Source: Escherichia phage KarlSchell_Bas89
Length of the DNA: 64,000 bases
Strand: one strand, 5' to 3'
Sequence record: PQ850613.1
Within the stretch, counting starts at the first letter, position 1, and every line of letters starts with the position of its first letter. Made by a program: the position numbers and the translations under genes. Shown here in pieces: positions 49,943 through 54,530 of the stretch. A model generated the notes under the pieces. The model did not search any database, was not told where the DNA came from, and saw only the letters and a program-made list of their open reading frames with translations.

Positions 49943-50038
49943 TCTATCCGACGGATGTTCGAGGATTGTTCCTCTCCCTAGCATCGGCCCCATACGGGAA
50001 ATATATTAAGATTAGGTTAGTTGAGTCAGAATAACTCA
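49943..50038. repeat. conserved intergenic element, copy A
   Basis: GGATGTTCGAG-hairpin-CTCTCCCTAGC ... TCACATAGCCCTC; second copy at 54449-54530 with a different but still self-complementary hairpin. Confidence 0.5.
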
Positions 50039-50075
50039 CATAGCCCTCCGAAGAAGGCTATAGGCGTTACTACAA

Positions 50076-50294
50076 CTAAAAATCACCTGATTTTACAAAA
50101 TCATCACTAAGAATTTCGTCAATCTCTTTGCTAGTCAAATCTTTCCTGAACCAGCAACAAGGAACATTCACCCATTGACCAGAGTCGTTCTCTACAGAGC
50201 ATAGATTCCCTGTCTTACTCTTGCATTTATAGGATTTTCCTTTATCTAGACGGTAGTGTAATCTGTAAACGACAGACACGAGTGTTATCATCAC
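50076..50294 (-). CDS. hypothetical small protein
   Basis: ORF only. Confidence 0.35.
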   Translation of the reverse strand: MMITLVSVVYRLHYRLDKGKSYKCKSKTGNLCSVENDSGQWVNVPCCWFRKDLTSKEIDEILSDDFVKSGDF

Positions 50295-50524
50295 TCACCT
50301 TTCTTAGCACGATCTTTGGCAGTTTTACCAGTGCGGATACGATGGGAAACGTTAACCAGAGTGCCACCATCAACTACGGTAACGCTCTTGTTTTTAGCCA
50401 GATCAAACACAGTCTTTTCTGTGCCACCCAAGCGAATTTGCTTAGGCTCACTGAAGGTTTGGGTTGATTTGGATTGGAACTGGAACGGTTGACGGATTGC
50501 ATCGATTGCACTTACTTTAGACAT
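50291..50524 (-). CDS. hypothetical small protein
   Basis: ORF only. Confidence 0.35.
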   Translation of the reverse strand: MSKVSAIDAIRQPFQFQSKSTQTFSEPKQIRLGGTEKTVFDLAKNKSVTVVDGGTLVNVSHRIRTGKTAKDRAKKGE

Positions 50525-50755
50525 ATGGGAAATTCCTTAAAAAGTTATGGCTGCGTAGAGGGAATTCCCTACGCAAATTGGGCCGCCCACAGAGAGGCGT
50601 CATAGTACTAAAAGGAGGAGAGAAGAGGGCTTATTTAGTTACCTTTTTCTGTCCGTTTATGAACCAGATAATTGAACCGTCAGGCTGCCGTTGACCGAAG
50701 CCTTTCTGGTTAATCATATCGTCATAAGAATATGCTTTACGTCTCATTTGTTTTC

Positions 50756-51004
50756 CTACGAAGTTAGGATGATTTCAGCCTTAATATACTTCTCACCAAC
50801 AACCATATCACCAGACACAGGACGAACCTCTCCAGTGCCTAGGTTAACAGCTCCAGCAGGTTGACAACCCATGCTCTTAGCTGTCAGCATGTAAATCTTT
50901 TGAAGATGGCACTCTTGGAGAGTGAACACATCTGACATATTTAGATCTTTAACACGGAGGACTGTTTCCTCTTTGCTCTTAACTTTAATATGGATAGTGC
51001 TCAT
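50756..51004 (-). CDS. small early protein (paralog family)
   Basis: Similar size and motif pattern to neighbouring small ORFs. Confidence 0.35.
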   Translation of the reverse strand: MSTIHIKVKSKEETVLRVKDLNMSDVFTLQECHLQKIYMLTAKSMGCQPAGAVNLGTGEVRPVSGDMVVGEKYIKAEIILTS

Positions 51005-51006
51005 GA

Positions 51007-51282
51007 TTACTCCTGAACCACTGACATACGAATCACTTCAACTGGGGCATCACTTTTCATAACACCCAGCACACCAGTCAGAAGGTTAACCGTAGTAATC
51101 CAACCCTCTTCTACAGAGATCTTGTTGGACACGTTATTGACACGCATGTAATACTGAGGTGATGCTGTACCCCGCTGAACTACGAAAGGGTTTCCGGGGA
51201 TGATTGTATCCAGTGGATACGTGTTATCTTTAACCTTGGGGATAATTTTCATGTTAACCCTTAACAACCTTAGCTTCAACAT
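51007..51282 (-). CDS. small early protein
   Basis: ORF only. Confidence 0.35.
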   Translation of the reverse strand: MLKLRLLRVNMKIIPKVKDNTYPLDTIIPGNPFVVQRGTASPQYYMRVNNVSNKISVEEGWITTVNLLTGVLGVMKSDAPVEVIRMSVVQE

Positions 51283-51499
51283 TGACAGGATAAACCTTCA
51301 TGCCATCAACAGGGGCACTGAGTTCGCCATTTTCCAGTTTAACGCACACAACACGACCGAGAGGTGGCTCAATCCAAGACGTCCTATTTGTTGTGCACAC
51401 CATGTGGACGGGGCCACGTTCTTCTTTTCTGAAAGTATCCCCACTTTTTAACTCGGACAGCTTTACAGTTTTAGTAGGACTGACATCATTAACTTTCAT
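51254..51499 (-). CDS. small early protein (paralog family)
   Basis: VKLSELKSGDTFRKEE motif shared with 52297, 52531, 54559, 54778 ORFs. Confidence 0.4.
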   Translation of the reverse strand: MKVNDVSPTKTVKLSELKSGDTFRKEERGPVHMVCTTNRTSWIEPPLGRVVCVKLENGELSAPVDGMKVYPVNVEAKVVKG

Positions 51500-51507
51500 C
51501 TTGATTC

Positions 51508-51822
51508 CTATTTAAGTTTAAGGCTGATATTAAGGTGCATACACGCCCTGTTCTGTACAGCGGCATAACTTCTACCGAGCATGTCTGCCATTCTCTGAAT
51601 AGGCATGAACCCAGCATTACGAATAACAAACTGATCTTCTTCTTCCGTCCACTTGACACGAAGAGTAGCTCTGGAAATTTTGAATTTGGTACAGGCTGTG
51701 TTAACAGCATTCTCTGTAACATTCATAATCAAAGCTATCTCAGGGATAGAATACTCTTTGATCAACCGTTTAAGATTCTCGATTTGCATCGGAGTCCATA
51801 TGGTTCTTCTGGCTTTCATATA
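51508..51822 (-). CDS. putative DNA-binding protein with two tandem HTH-like repeats
   Basis: WTPMQIENLKRLIKEYSIPEIALIMN and WTEEEDQFVIRN...IQRMADMLGRSYAAVQNR; start placed at internal Met. Confidence 0.4.
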   Translation of the reverse strand, partial: YMKARRTIWTPMQIENLKRLIKEYSIPEIALIMNVTENAVNTACTKFKISRATLRVKWTEEEDQFVIRNAGFMPIQRMADMLGRSYAAVQNRACMHLNISLKLK

Positions 51823-52530: not shown

Positions 52531-52824
52531 TTAATAAGTGACACCAGTTAATGTAGCTTCAGGCATGTGGACCACTTTAACTCCTGCTGCGAACCCATCC
52601 ATATCACCGTTATGCAGGTTGACTGCTTTATAGTAACCGGACAAGAAACTAGAAGTCTTTACCCAAAAGCCATTATTCCATTTGAATACAGACCCACCTT
52701 TGAGAGTGGAAATCTCAACTGTGGTCTCACTGTTTGTTGCATCAATAATCATAAGCAGTGTTCCAGTGCTCGTAGTTAACGCCCAGCTTCCTGCCATAAA
52801 GGAGGAAGAATGTTTTCTGTACAC
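52531..52824 (-). CDS. small early protein (paralog family)
   Basis: ISTLKGGSVFKWNNGFWVK. Confidence 0.4.
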   Translation of the reverse strand: MYRKHSSSFMAGSWALTTSTGTLLMIIDATNSETTVEISTLKGGSVFKWNNGFWVKTSSFLSGYYKAVNLHNGDMDGFAAGVKVVHMPEATLTGVTY

Positions 52825-52984
52825 GCTCTTTCAGAGTGTAATACTCGTCGGTATTAAACTTCTTACACTTAACACGAAAGCGTAAGGCTCTGGCATCCAT
52901 TCGAAGCATAGAGATCATTTGGTTATGGCTCTGGCTGTTCATCTCTTCCAGAAGTTTCTTGGTGTTCCAATAATGAGTTGTCAT
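52742..52984 (-). CDS. hypothetical small protein
   Basis: ORF only. Confidence 0.3.
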   Translation of the reverse strand: MTTHYWNTKKLLEEMNSQSHNQMISMLRMDARALRFRVKCKKFNTDEYYTLKERVQKTFFLLYGRKLGVNYEHWNTAYDY

Positions 52985-52985
52985 A

Positions 52986-53267
52986 TTACCACTCCTTACC
53001 AGACGTTGTTACAGAACCGCTACACCACTGTGCATTCGATAGTGTTTTAGTTTCTTCATCAACAGCTGCACCATTAAGGCAAGAGATTCCGTTATAGTGC
53101 ATGTCAATCTCACCACTAGGAATCTTGTTCCCTGAATTCCAGCGAGATACGCACACACCTTCAACAGATACTGCACACCATCCATCAGGACGGCTCTGTA
53201 CGCAGCCTGTAAGAGCCACACAAGCGATGAAGATACAGATCAAGGATATTACACCACCCCAACTCAT
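52986..53267 (-). CDS. lipoprotein (signal peptide with lipobox LTGC)
   Basis: MSWGGVISLICIFIACVALTGC. Confidence 0.5.
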   Translation of the reverse strand: MSWGGVISLICIFIACVALTGCVQSRPDGWCAVSVEGVCVSRWNSGNKIPSGEIDMHYNGISCLNGAAVDEETKTLSNAQWCSGSVTTSGKEW

Positions 53268-53286
53268 AATTATCTCCTAATTGATT

Positions 53287-53363
53287 TGGAGCACCGTGTA
53301 GGATTCCAACCTACAACCCATTTCTTAGAAGGAAATTGCTCTCTGCAATTGAGCTAACGGCGC
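53287..53363 (-). tRNA. tRNA-Arg (anticodon UCU), CCA encoded
   Basis: Minus strand folds as a cloverleaf: 7-bp acceptor stem (one G-U), D arm GCTC/GAGC, anticodon stem ATTTC/GAAAT with loop CTTCTAA, T arm GTAGG/CCTAC, 3' TCCA. Confidence 0.75.
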
Positions 53364-53544
53364 TTAATTTATTTAAATCATGTCACGCTTGGTAACATGA
53401 CCACATACTTTACACTGCATAACATAGCGAAGACCTTTGTGCTTTGTCTCACCGTAATCGTCAGTAATTCTCAGTGTATATTTTTCAAGGATTACCCAAT
53501 CATGCAGATGCACAAGACGTTTAAACCATTTGAACATACTGTCC

Positions 53545-53796
53545 TCAAGCACATGCAGGGAGTGTGATAATCTCAGGCTTGCCTTTGAAATCTTCAAAGA
53601 CACCCAAGAACGTAGGGCTATACGTGCCAGTACAAACAAACTCATCAAAGAGTTCATTGTACGAGGGCTTAATCTTCCAAGCCCACACATAGCCCATCTT
53701 ATCAATCGCAATGTGACGAGTGTTCAGAGGAACAGTCATCATCACACCATCAACTTCGATCACTTTAGTTATCGGTGCAGCTTGGAAGTTTTTCAT
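53545..53796 (-). CDS. hypothetical small protein
   Basis: ORF only. Confidence 0.35.
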   Translation of the reverse strand: MKNFQAAPITKVIEVDGVMMTVPLNTRHIAIDKMGYVWAWKIKPSYNELFDEFVCTGTYSPTFLGVFEDFKGKPEIITLPACA

Positions 53797-53972
53797 ACTT
53801 TACCTTTGATTCGCACGTTGTTGATGTAACAGGAAGGACAAGGACGAACAACTTCCCCGCCCTCTTTGATTGTCTTAATCTCACTACGAGTGATATTCAC
53901 ACGAGCACCACAACAAGGAGAGTTAACATAAGAGTAACCGGATTGGGTATGTTTGATGATTTGCTTGTTCAT
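53793..53972 (-). CDS. small Cys-rich zinc-ribbon-like protein (59 aa, below track cutoff)
   Basis: Hand translation gives MNKQIIKHTQSGYSYVNSPCCGAR...RPCPSCYINNV; stop overlaps next start (ATGA). Confidence 0.3.
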   Translation of the reverse strand: MNKQIIKHTQSGYSYVNSPCCGARVNITRSEIKTIKEGGEVVRPCPSCYINNVRIKGKV

Positions 53973-54448
53973 ATTAGCAACCTCTTGTTAGTTTAAGTAA
54001 GAGTTGGCCCTTAATTAAAACAACAAAGGCCACCTATTTCTAGGCAGCCTTTTATTCGATCAGTTATTATAAATCCAATCACCCTGACGTTTACGGATAT
54101 TACCAGTCAGACGCAGCATGGCAGATTCAATCTTCAGTGCACCATTTGCTACTGCATCCATACGCTCAGGACGGTTCATACGCTTGGTTGACTTCTTCAT
54201 AACGTTCTCTCTTTGTTAGTGGAGGCATTATTGCCAGTTGATATAAGGGATAGCCCTAGTCAGGAGGCTAATTCTGACCGCGTACTCATTGCCGACCTTC
54301 TCTGCCTAAGAGTTCAGGTTCTAGAGCTATCTCTTATTCCAACTGGTGAAGACCTCCTACCCCTAGGAGATCTCCCGAATCCCAAACCAATACGTACCCC
54401 TACGTAGTGGAAAGTCTACCGAAATTGCACAGGTTTTAGTCTAACACC

Positions 54449-54530
54449 GGATGTTCGAGCAAGCTCTCCCTAGCGGTGCGGCATATGCCTGATTGATATA
54501 GTTAGTGAGGAACACCCTCACATAGCCCTC
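54449..54530. repeat. conserved intergenic element, copy B
   Basis: Same flanking motifs as copy A; internal hairpin GAGC-AA-GCTC replaces GAGGA-TTGT-TCCTC. Confidence 0.5.

Follow-up and report, generated by a model that had tools for sequence, protein, structure and literature searches.

The window, the whole 64-kb stretch of DNA analysed here, comes from the genome of a phiEco32-like coliphage and carries two copies of an intergenic element. Copy A occupies the gap between the minus-strand open reading frames (ORFs) 50076..50294 and 49684..49839, and copy B that between the minus-strand ORFs 54559..54777 and 54060..54200, as the original prediction of two minus-strand intergenic sites had it. 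The shared sequence blocks on which that prediction was built are exact, stand in the same order in both copies and occur nowhere else in the window: GGATGTTCGAG at 49953-49963 (A) and 54449-54459 (B), CTCTCCCTAGC at 49972-49982 (A) and 54464-54474 (B), and TCACATAGCCCTC at 50036-50048 (A) and 54518-54530 (B), with a spacing between the second and third blocks of 53 nt in A versus 43 nt in B. By our own estimate about 0.03 second occurrences of one exact 11-mer are expected in 128 kb; chance therefore cannot account for three exact blocks (11, 11 and 13 nt) in co-linear order. The predicted element of about 90 bp is thus real but larger than proposed, since a covariance model places copy A at 49940-50064 and copy B at 54436-54552; ending copy A at 50038 would split the third block. 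The conserved unit of copy A (unit A) extends further, to a terminator at about 49859.

Each copy comprises five helices (H1, H2, H3, P1 and P2). H1 and H2 come right after a stop codon and are followed by an AU-rich linker of variable length, the 3-bp helix H3, P1, an internal loop and P2. The features are as follows.

50040..50061, minus strand: copy A helix H1, AUAGCCUUC-UUCG-GAGGGCUAU (RNAalifold on the MAFFT alignment)
50022..50038, minus strand: copy A helix H2, UGAGUUA-UUC-UGACUCA (single-sequence folds of every variant)
49999..50021, minus strand: copy A AU-rich linker with ACUAAC (folds of the element alone and of the whole unit)
49989..49998, minus strand: copy A helix H3, CCC-GUAU-GGG (covariation)
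49948..49987, minus strand: copy A core, P1 (CCGAUG/CGUCGG), loop (CUAGGGA / GAACAUC) and P2 (GAGGA-ACAA-UCCUC)
49919..49947, minus strand: copy A tail, 3′ strand of helix P0 (UAAGAG..AGGUUA; RNAalifold)
49903..49918, minus strand: copy A tail, small hairpin GAUAUU-GGGU-AAUAUC (folding and comparison)
49859..49893, minus strand: copy A intrinsic terminator, hairpin 49883-49866 with a U6 tract and an upstream A-tract
54522..54549, minus strand: copy B helix H1, AUAGUCCUU-12 nt loop-AGGGCUAU (folding, covariation)
54505..54521, minus strand: copy B helix H2, GUGAGG-GUGUU-CCUCAC (folding)
54490..54504, minus strand: copy B AU-rich linker, UAACUAUAUCAAUCA, 10 nt less than in A
54480..54489, minus strand: copy B helix H3, GGC-AUAU-GCC (covariation)
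54445..54478, minus strand: copy B core, P1 (CACCG/CGGUG), the same invariant loop and P2 (GAG-CUUG-CUC)
54201..54444, minus strand: structured non-coding leader from copy B to a 46-codon gene (RNAalifold, 12 phages)
54025..54200, minus strand: small gene 54060-54200, then a terminator-like hairpin at 54052-54025
51879..52110, minus strand: partial third relative, copy C (weak covariance-model match, 23 bits)

H1 begins a few nucleotides past the stop codon of ORF 50076..50294 in copy A and immediately follows the stop of ORF 54559..54777 in copy B. The linker of copy A is unpaired in the fold of the element alone and pairs with the tail in the fold of the whole unit. In A-type copies it also provides the 5′ strand of the closing helix P0 (UAACCU at 50014-50019), which encloses H3 and P1/P2 as a three-way junction; a DnaA-box-like 9-mer and then the intrinsic terminator follow. 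This 9-mer, TTATCCACA at 49919-49927, overlaps the 3′ strand of P0 and has its sole perfect occurrence in the window here, and GGTTATCCACA is invariant in both phage families. A terminator after copy A on the minus strand had been foreseen and is confirmed by GACTCTTTTCGGAGAGTC and a T-run at 49883-49866; its upstream A-tract (UUUAAAG) is able to pair with the U-tract, and it is conserved in 7-11-like phages, where a GenBank record annotates it as a terminator. The small tail hairpin is found in Gordonclarkvirinae and deleted in the 7-11-like phages. Copy B and the divergent member L064 have neither the DnaA-like box nor P0, the tail or an adjacent terminator.

The leader behind copy B forms 51 pairs, 11 of them compensated, displays UAGGGGUA loops on two hairpins and may be part of the same RNA as copy B. 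The small gene downstream encodes a homologue of phiEco32 gp112 of 46 residues with a basic N-terminus; tblastn finds homologues in 106 phage records, each either named after Escherichia, Shigella or Salmonella or bearing no host name, the same groups as those of the RNA carriers. Copy C, in a region conserved across 8 phages, has H1-like, H2-like, ACUAAC and H3-like parts without the P1/P2 core, followed by other hairpins and a terminator-like hairpin at 51898-51879.

Related phages carry further copies, for which a search had been suggested. The covariance model matches exactly two per Gordonclarkvirinae phage, one and no B copy per Moazamivirus (7-11-like) phage, and, in a phage-like contig unrelated to these, a single divergent copy. 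In L064 the loops are kept and the sequence of every helix is different; 8 kb of L064 contain no gp112 homologue. Unit A of the window shares 69-74% identity with its counterparts in 7-11-like phages, and copy A with its tail gives the sole non-coding match at nucleotide level to the compared 24-40 kb stretches of these genomes, as well as their sole match in the early region; the protein adjoining it is just 31% identical. The element has no match in Rfam and no mention was found in the accessible literature; it is a previously undescribed folded RNA of phiEco32-like and 7-11-like early transcripts.

A structured RNA had been proposed from a single compensating hairpin, and this hairpin, P2, is confirmed in 44 distinct homologues, with H1, H2, H3 and P1 compensating as well. 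Both of its described forms exist, GAGGA-TTGT-TCCTC in A and GAGC-AA-GCTC in B, but the 2-nt loop of the latter is sterically impossible, so that copy B in effect forms GAG-CUUG-CUC, read on the minus strand. Across the 44 sequences, 99.8% of the cells are standard pairs, compared with 33-47% in a control with the 3′ partners slid. Double compensatory changes occur in 13 of the 22 pairs, against 6.8±0.9 in shuffled data (none of 500 shuffles reaches 13), although most of this covariation comes from about four deep lineages and the independent events are therefore modest in number. From an unguided MAFFT alignment, RNAalifold retrieves H1, H3, P1 and P2 with 7 compensated pairs; the consensus contains zero mismatched pairs, its non-pairs being alignment gaps only. 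Four of the six P1 pairs show double changes. All nine H1 pairs are 100% paired, with double changes in six when L064 is included, and two of the three H3 pairs swap GC for CG around an invariant closing C-G and NUAU loop. H2 compensates in five forms (GAGU/ACUC, GAGC/GCUC, GAGUC/GACUC, GAGG/CCUC and GAGUUA/UAACUC) and in an additional one in L064 (GGUAUACA/UGUAUAUC). The 7x7 internal loop between P1 and P2, CUAGGG[A/C] / [G/A]AACAUC, is invariant apart from a non-Watson-Crick pair, which itself co-varies (A/G 18, C/A 12, A/A 3, C/G 0) and has switched between A/G and C/A independently in Kuravirus A, Moazamivirus A and Suseptimavirus B.

The folding strand is the minus, mRNA-sense strand, because 72 G-U cells become A-C mismatches on the opposite strand (paired cells 99.8% sense versus 92.4% antisense) and the minus-strand folds are more stable by 5-9 kcal/mol. 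Since the element is encoded on the minus strand, it belongs to the leftward early transcripts that the host RNA polymerase produces. Support for its shape is very strong, and A and B are almost certainly paralogues of one conserved multi-helix RNA structure in these transcripts.

Promoter activity, which the original prediction had considered, found no counterpart in the sequence and was rejected: the sigma-70 match in A is at chance level, B has none and neither copy has a gp36-type motif. The early promoters lie at about 59.2-59.6 kb, 4.7 kb away from copy B. Four terminator-like hairpins stand between them and the genes running from 49.8 to 35.9 kb, in which sigma-70 matches occur at chance level only, with no exact gp36-type motif before about 35.9 kb. 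An rrn-type boxA follows each early promoter, about 4.7-9.6 kb upstream of the elements; neither A nor B has a boxA within it. Nus-dependent read-through is probably in use in this operon; given these boxA sequences, read-through machinery may be in place even without A or B. Validated early promoters of 7-11 number just two, both far upstream (PMC8948821). The protein gp79 is described as middle-phase acting (PMC12276001) and as the product of a middle gene (PMC8948821). Six gp36 promoters are known, before genes 6, 13, 26, 40, 58 and 68; gene 79 is transcribed before gene 68 and can be driven by none of them.

On function we can offer a guess, most likely control at the downstream terminator. 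The invariant loop would serve as a sequence-specific recognition site on nascent RNA, bound by a phage protein, a host protein or RNA polymerase itself, and the bound loop would set stop versus read-through at the intrinsic terminator downstream (49883-49866 after A, 54052-54025 after B). Such processive antitermination, like that at lambda nut or HK022 put, could time the expression of about 14 kb of downstream genes without a recognisable promoter of their own. That a cis element recognised in this manner governs read-through is possible, if rather doubtful; a structured RNA with a terminator-control role is nevertheless the best explanation as a whole, which we advance tentatively. Circumstantial points in its favour are the terminator conserved after A in both phage families, the terminator-like hairpin after copy B and its small gene, the four such hairpins upstream of genes with no recognisable promoter, the description of gp79 as a middle-phase protein although no known gp36 promoter suits its gene, and the shared occurrence of small protein and RNA in the same host-named phage groups. 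The orders gp91-[A]-T-gp90 and gp113-[B]-small basic protein-T are reminiscent of cro-nutR-tR1 and nutL-N-tL1. Points against it are that neither boxA nor boxB was found adjoining the element and no N homologue was found, that copy B is far from the promoters, unlike put or nut, that the boxA sequences after the early promoters may already provide for read-through, that L064 lacks the gp112 homologue and 7-11-like phages a B copy, and that the copy A tail (UCCACA, U-rich stretch, terminator) is more like a small-RNA 3′ end.

The read-through role has two close rivals, RNA processing and a stable small RNA, each of them unlikely in our estimation. As punctuation for processing or stability, the AU-rich linker or the P1/loop/P2 helix would be cut by RNase E or RNase III, leaving the upstream mRNA capped by H1 and H2 and the downstream RNA headed by H3 and the core, much as at the RNase III sites between T7 early genes. 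Processing, which the authors of the 7-11 study proposed, associated with hairpins or else reverse-transcriptase stalling, for another intergenic site (PMC8948821), fits an element always directly behind a stop codon and a single-stranded, AU-rich linker of varying length. Copy C, with H1, H2, linker and H3 parts and no core, also agrees and suggests a modular 5′ part. However, the 14-nt loop stays invariant in the paralogues and in three lineages and has a co-varying pair of isosteric type; this implies sequence-specific recognition, a requirement that known substrates of RNase III and RNase E lack. P1, loop and P2 together offer no more than about 15-18 stacked positions, a short span for RNase III.

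Alternatively, the part of unit A that starts near 50064 or 49998 and ends with the 49859 terminator (roughly 140-205 nt) might be released as a stable, trans-acting, 3′-UTR-type non-coding RNA, with the exposed invariant UUAUCCACA region as seed or the loop as protein decoy. The whole unit folds at -68.6 kcal/mol (z = -3.3), its U-rich stretch and conserved terminator have the layout of an Hfq module, GGUUAUCCACA is invariant between flanks that vary and carry a 10-nt indel, and no other non-coding match joins the compared parts of the two families. Against this, no conserved promoter precedes the unit, and the absence of tail and terminator from copy B and L064 leaves the part common to all copies unexplained by a small RNA.

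A DNA-level element is very improbable. The unique perfect box, invariant in two phage families, together with hairpin-forming and AT-rich DNA beside it, might mark a replication origin, a DnaA-dependent roadblock or a protein site, the covariation reflecting cruciforms or single-strand DNA hairpins. Yet copy B and L064 lack the box, which in copy A is partly paired within P0; the G-U pairs make the structure strand-specific, with the mRNA sense folding; cumulative GC skew has no inflection near 50 kb; and duplex DNA does not readily account for covariation at a non-Watson-Crick pair. Small riboswitches consisting of a hairpin with a conserved internal loop exist, and in A-type copies a compact P0-closed junction precedes the intrinsic terminator. 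Even so, a three-way junction and internal loop that bind a small ligand and set terminator efficiency are highly implausible here: no conserved antiterminator pairing was found (the GGGAGAG/CUCUUU pairing of the window is lost in 7-11), P0 is absent from B and L064, and no Rfam class matches. A small gene starting at the invariant AUG inside H3 is next to inconceivable and was rejected on frame analysis: A-type copies encode MGPMLGRG..., the phage Paul record annotates a 96-nt (31-codon) ORF over the element and the A to C loop change is synonymous in that frame (AGA/CGA), but every B copy reaches a stop after 4 codons (MPHR*/MAHR*), L064 after 9 and most 7-11-like copies after 15, a 2-nt P2-loop difference shifts the frame between A and 7-11 with the downstream nucleotides still conserved, and GenBank ORFs over the element differ in strand and frame between records.

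Among known systems, lambda nutL/nutR with N likewise has two copies in early host-polymerase operons, each with a short ORF before it and a terminator downstream, one followed by a small basic protein gene and then a terminator, with stems that co-vary between copies. Our element differs in having no adjacent boxA, no boxB-type 5-bp hairpin with a GNRA-like pentaloop and no N homologue, in the 4.7 kb between copy B and the promoters, and in its putative recognition feature, a 7x7 internal loop. HK022 putL/putR are paralogues too, folded RNAs of about 70-120 nt that act in cis within early phage transcripts, with conserved unpaired nucleotides between compensating stems upstream of terminators; unlike the element, they are promoter-proximal and consist of two stem-loops, with no match to it in sequence or architecture. 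The T7 RNase III signals (R0.3-R1.3) share the repeated intergenic hairpins with an internal loop in a host-polymerase-transcribed early operon of a podophage, whereas the element has shorter helices, the additional H1-H3 and P0, and a strictly invariant loop with a co-varying non-Watson-Crick pair. Like 3′-UTR-derived Hfq-module small RNAs, unit A ends in a U-rich stretch, terminator hairpin and U-tail and has a short invariant motif, single-stranded at least in part, but the likeness holds for copy A only and the 5′ domain is unusually elaborate. The rrn-type boxA, present once per early promoter in the same operon, is a separate sequence element from A and B.

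Megablast of 49000-55500 matched 108 phage records, led by Escherichia phage EP335 (93.8% identity) and followed by KBNP1711, SU10, phiEco32 and others, which places the window in a phiEco32-like podophage of the subfamily Gordonclarkvirinae. Every ORF between 47 and 58 kb is on the minus strand, and the region holding copies A and B, the two intergenic copies of the element, is by homology the early region, transcribed leftward by host sigma-70 RNA polymerase (PMC8948821; PMC4281155). Copy A fills the counterpart of the phiEco32 gp91|gp90 gap and copy B that of the gp113|gp112 gap. 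The principal features are:

within 59126-59585, three early promoters in tandem duplications (repeat families D4 and D8)
54436-54552, minus strand, copy B
51879-52110, minus strand, conserved non-coding unit of copy C, a partial relative, ending in a terminator-like hairpin, GGGAGG..CCUCCC
49940-50064, minus strand, copy A
49919-49927, minus strand, DnaA-box sequence TTATCCACA, a 9/9 match and the sole perfect one within the 64-kb window

The three promoters correspond to early promoters of SU10 (Table S2 of the SU10 paper), and the SU10 promoter/terminator table has no entry at the loci of copies A and B. Four terminator-like hairpins (55981, 54052, 51898 and 49883) lie between the early promoters (~59.2-59.6 kb) and the first gp36-type promoter (~35.9 kb), and in the ~14 kb of genes downstream of 49.8 kb sigma-70 matches occur at chance level only and the exact gp36-type motif was not found. 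In 7-11, only two early promoters are validated, both far upstream (PMC8948821). The six known gp36 promoters precede genes 6, 13, 26, 40, 58 and 68 (PMC8948821, PMC4331800), and none of them can drive the gene of gp79, which is described as a middle-phase product (PMC8948821, PMC12276001). Two further observations concern this operon and its surroundings. A strong intrinsic terminator (GCCCCGGCUACGGCUGGGGC followed by U6) is located inside the operon at 55962-55981 on the minus strand, ~1.4 kb upstream of copy B, with a second minus-strand hairpin upstream of it (56049-56066) and no related RNA element in front. A 61-nt direct repeat of 74% identity (family D2; TATGATT..TTTTCAGGGTTAGG..) occurs at 28659-28719 and 38448-38508 in a minus-strand gene cluster.

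On the minus strand, both copies begin a few nucleotides past a stop codon and form a chain of helices, H1, H2, H3 and the core helices P1 and P2, which enclose a 7x7 internal loop. The original prediction had described two look-alike stretches with a compensatory hairpin; their three shared blocks are indeed exact, co-linear and confined to the two loci, and the hairpin difference is genuine, while the boundaries then assigned need correcting. Homologues were gathered from GenBank phages, IMG/VR, metagenomes and species-representative genomes, and 16 unique sequences were aligned with MAFFT. Run unguided on this alignment, RNAalifold returned H1, H3, P1 and P2, comprising 22 pairs, of which none is broken by a mismatch (alignment gaps are the sole non-pairs) and 7 are changed on both sides. 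H2 was left out of the covariance model because MAFFT misaligns it; every variant still folds H2, with compensated forms. In the final alignment of 44 distinct sequences, which was fitted to the covariance model and whose variation mostly separates about four deep lineages, standard pairs occupy 99.8% of 947 cells, compared with 33-47% after displacement of the 3' partners by 1-3 columns, and double changes affect 13 of the 22 pairs versus 6.8±0.9 after shuffling, with 0/500 shuffles attaining the observed value. The dependence of this alignment on the model is answered by the unguided 16-sequence result and by the sequence of L064, a divergent homologue on a phage-like contig. The folded strand is the mRNA sense; folds on the minus strand are 5-9 kcal/mol more stable than on the plus strand, and owing to 72 G-U cells pairing of the complementary strand would fall to 92.4%. 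Of the two possibilities raised originally, a structured RNA or a DNA stem-loop, the former holds: the structured RNA family is real and strongly supported. No description of it was found in the accessible literature, which does not extend to the two primary phiEco32 papers (PMC3275717, PMC2587145), and the family was apparently undescribed before. Folded RNAs acting in cis or in trans in a phage early operon are an already known kind.

The internal loop reads CUAGGG[A/C] on its 5' side and [G/A]AACAUC on its 3' side, and all but the bracketed positions are invariant. These two face each other beside P2 in the combinations A/G (18), C/A (12) and A/A (3), and C/G is absent (0). The switch between A/G and C/A took place independently in several lineages, namely Kuravirus A copies, Moazamivirus and Suseptimavirus B copies; in the Moazamivirus case SeKF_80 and 7-11 otherwise differ at three scattered positions only, with the columns in register. 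Co-variation that shuns the Watson-Crick combination would be expected if a purine pair of the sheared type continued a tandem G-A stack (isosteric non-canonical pairs). As judged from the aligned sequences, such a putative pair argues for sequence-specific recognition at the RNA level.

With a covariance model built from the 16-sequence MAFFT/RNAalifold alignment, the search for further copies in related phages envisaged in the original prediction was productive. Each Gordonclarkvirinae phage with both gaps in the searched sequence has exactly two strong matches (A, 123-137 bits; B, 96-110 bits), and the Moazamivirus/7-11-like phages 7-11, SE131, pSal-SNUABM-01 and SeKF_80 have one each (131-140 bits). 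Aeromonas APT65 and Cronobacter GAP52 gave no copy, and an extension of the family to them by synteny was dropped. One truly divergent member, L064 (67 bits), came from scanning 185,579 species genomes; it lies on a 48.7-kb contig (JBOFGJ010000684.1) that is binned with a Flavobacterium MAG and carries an Srd-like phage early gene and runs of small ORFs. All its helices differ in sequence (H1, GUUAAGCG/CGCUUAAC; H2, GGUAUACA/UGUAUAUC; P1, AAUAGCG/CGCUAUU), and its internal loops and H3 loop are unchanged. The 21 stretches that the model matched in the metagenome scan are all closely related to known types, and 8 of the 27 returned stretches, all soil contigs among them, were without a match at E <= 0.01. 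Four outside-group matches from an exact-core pattern scan of IMG/VR (L009, L010, L018 and L020) lie in coding or unrelated DNA and were discarded as chance. The family is confined to Gordonclarkvirinae and Moazamivirus plus at least one divergent phage-like contig. On that contig (L064 1978-4396), small ORFs of 62, 66, 74 and 91 aa share the C-terminus ...(D/E)EENE and look like a repeated small-protein family of its early region.

Copy A belongs to a larger unit. The whole gap folds at -68.6 kcal/mol (z = -3.3), and in the predicted fold the AU-rich linker between H2 and H3 pairs with the tail that follows the core (UAACCU/AGGUUA and UCUUA/UAAGA), so that this helix, P0, would close H3 and P1/P2 into a three-way junction. 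RNAalifold recovered P0 from 16 A-type sequences, with 3 of its 11 pairs doubly changed, each in one to four sequences; it also appears in single-sequence folds of the window and of 7-11 (z = -3.2 and -3.5) and was not seen in folds of copy B or L064. AGGUUA is also the 5' part of the DnaA-box-like site, which is invariant as GGTTATCCACA in both phage families (8 aligned phages) and has variable flanks. Being both invariant and partly included in P0, the 9-mer could act as a site in the DNA, as a feature of the RNA or as both. It is followed by a small hairpin and then by an intrinsic terminator, that is, a GC-containing hairpin before a U-tract, here a 7-bp stem with a UUCG loop and CUUUUUU. 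This terminator, which the original prediction had correctly placed after copy A, is kept in both phage families with a compensated stem top, is annotated as such in the 7-11 GenBank record, and has a U-tract that can pair with a conserved upstream A-tract. An antiterminator pairing of the core GGGAGAG with the terminator 5' arm is available in the window, is not conserved in 7-11 and was dropped. Comparing the window by blastn with 24-40 kb stretches of three 7-11-like genomes yielded conserved enzyme-gene pieces and unit A (copy A with its tail), and nothing else. Unit A (49851-50069) is 69-74% identical to its 7-11-like counterparts and is the only non-coding and only early-region match in the compared stretches; the adjoining membrane protein is only 31% identical.

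Copy B is continued by a ~245-nt leader (54201-54444, minus strand) that is a conserved RNA structure in its own right, with 51 predicted pairs (11 compensated) and two hairpins bearing UAGGGGUA loops. A predicted long-range closing helix of copy B (AACACCG...CGGUGUU) is not conserved in ECBP2 and was abandoned. About half of the phages differ in the leader by a ~58-nt insertion or deletion, and a CCUCC in it can pair with the AGAGAG ribosome-binding region of the 46-codon gene that follows 3' and is itself succeeded by a terminator-like hairpin. The product, a small basic homologue of gp112, was considered as an N-like factor. It is present in 106 phage records, and its host-named groups are the same as those with the RNA, but neither a family or name nor homologues further afield could be found, no homologue adjoins the L064 copy, and the assignment was rejected. 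Copy C is a weak covariance-model match (52005-52105, minus strand, 23 bits) with H1-, H2-, ACUAAC- and H3-like parts and without the P1/loop/P2 core. With the units of copies A, B and C, the early operon is punctuated by three related non-coding units.

No Rfam 15 family reaches its gathering threshold at either copy, tRNA-Arg being the only match in the window, and sensitive E-value scans of both loci produced chance matches only, none on the core. ARAGORN likewise predicts no tRNA or tmRNA at the copies and a single tRNA-Arg (UCU; 53287-53363, minus strand) between copies B and A, beside which HNH endonuclease genes are variably inserted in related phages. A lambda-type nut boxA would be CGCUCUUA or GCUCUUUA a few nucleotides from a hairpin; the minus strand carries GCTCTTTA at 59.1-59.6 kb and 14361-14368 and not near 49.9 or 54.5 kb, in agreement with direct reading of the sequences. 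A boxB is a short stem whose GNRA-like pentaloop is bound by the arginine-rich N peptide; the P2 and H3 loops are ACAA, CUUG, GUAU and AUAU and vary freely, and no N family was detected among the proteins neighbouring the copies. By eye, we know of no fit of the conserved positions to a K-turn, sarcin-ricin/loop E, 11-nt tetraloop receptor, hammerhead, group II domain 5 or type I-F CRISPR repeat. As all these comparisons were negative, the element is not placed in any named family. Promoter activity of the copies, for which an assay had originally been suggested, is not borne out either. A sigma-70 promoter shared by the copies would have -35 and -10 hexamers separated by 16-18 nt at both; the single candidate in copy A is a 9/12 match (1 found versus 1.7 expected) that is not conserved in 7-11, and the minus strand of copy B yielded none. 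The gp36 motif (tAATGTAtA, 6-8 nt upstream of the start) has no match within 1 mismatch at either copy. With matches at chance level or absent, both promoter readings were rejected.

Elsewhere in the operon, boxA sequences accompany the early promoters:

59136-59143, 59370-59377, 59497-59504 and 59604-59611, minus strand, rrn-type boxA just downstream of each early sigma-70 promoter

They take the form GCUCUUUAACAAUUUA or, in three other contexts (then UUUAUCA, UAUGAAU or UCAGGCU), GCUCUUUAAAAA, and one is preceded by a boxB-like hairpin, GUGUG-AGAAAG-CACAC. The window contains 10 occurrences of GCTCTTTA versus 2.8 expected. Other Gordonclarkvirinae loci and L064 (boxA at 351-362) likewise contain exact GCTCTTTAACAA, and a regular expression for boxA variants had no match in 7-11-like loci. 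Together these observations suggest that host Nus-factor antitermination is recruited; a link between boxA and phiEco32 was not found in the accessible literature.

phiEco32 serves as a model of how phages take over host transcription, via the sigma factor gp36 and the regulator gp79. In the accessible literature we found no explanation for early transcripts crossing several intrinsic terminators, nor for the expression of genes 90-69, gp79 included, for which no promoter of their own is known. A folded RNA that is conserved and stands just before those terminators is a concrete candidate for the missing control point. The analysis establishes that early transcripts carry a conserved RNA fold whose invariant loop is of the recognition type and which, in copy A, stands immediately upstream of a conserved intrinsic terminator. 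As an inference from context, namely the terminators, the promoter-poor downstream genes, gp79, the nut-like layouts and the small protein found in the same phage groups as the RNA, we favour a role in transcription elongation or termination. By analogy, the element may control terminator read-through in a nut/put-like manner. We propose this tentatively, because the element has no defining nut feature, because rrn-type boxA already follows every early promoter, because the B/gp112 arrangement is not shared by L064 or 7-11, and because the tail of copy A resembles a small-RNA 3' end. A fuller version, which we advance with still more reserve, is a new phage RNA class. Such an RNA would act on the transcribing host RNA polymerase, either directly like put, the two-stem HK022 RNA that renders the polymerase resistant to terminators in cis without factors, or by way of a small phage protein, for instance gp112, and would switch off intrinsic terminators to give phiEco32- and 7-11-like phages a delayed-early gene class, with the invariant 7x7 loop and its sheared-type A-G/C-A pair serving as recognition motif.

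Two close rivals are each rather unlikely. The element might serve RNA processing or stability. An RNase III signal consists of about two turns of quasi-continuous helix together with cleavage in vivo, and P1, loop and P2 comprise 15-18 stacked positions, more with P0 in copy A. Alternatively, it might be released as a stable RNA, with which the small-RNA-like end of the copy A tail would agree. A role at the DNA level, in DnaA binding or as a replication origin, is improbable; GC skew has no inflection near 50 kb, and an origin was rejected on that ground. A riboswitch is more improbable still. A small protein-coding gene is barely credible and was rejected since neither frame nor length is conserved among homologues: the reading frame from the AUG in H3 runs for at least 18 codons in copy A, where the aligned segment ends before any stop (30 by reading of the sequence), 4 in copy B (MPHR*), 9 in L064 and ~15 in most 7-11-like phages, and the frame shifts between copy A and 7-11 while the nucleotides stay conserved. 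The short hypothetical ORFs annotated in GenBank over the element are probably spurious calls, as their strands and frames are inconsistent:

L033 355-450, Paul gp095
L030 3719-3820, Bas93_0087
L027 332-472, SeKF_80 CDS0124

Whatever its function, the element represents a well-supported new RNA structural family suited to Rfam. It is better conserved than the one neighbouring protein compared and is common to two phage families and one divergent phage-like contig, and the clean co-variation of its non-Watson-Crick pair recommends it for structural studies. As regards the read-through control favoured here, the order gene, copy A, terminator, gene recalls lambda nutR-tR1, and the order gene, copy B, small basic protein, terminator recalls lambda nutL-N-tL1.
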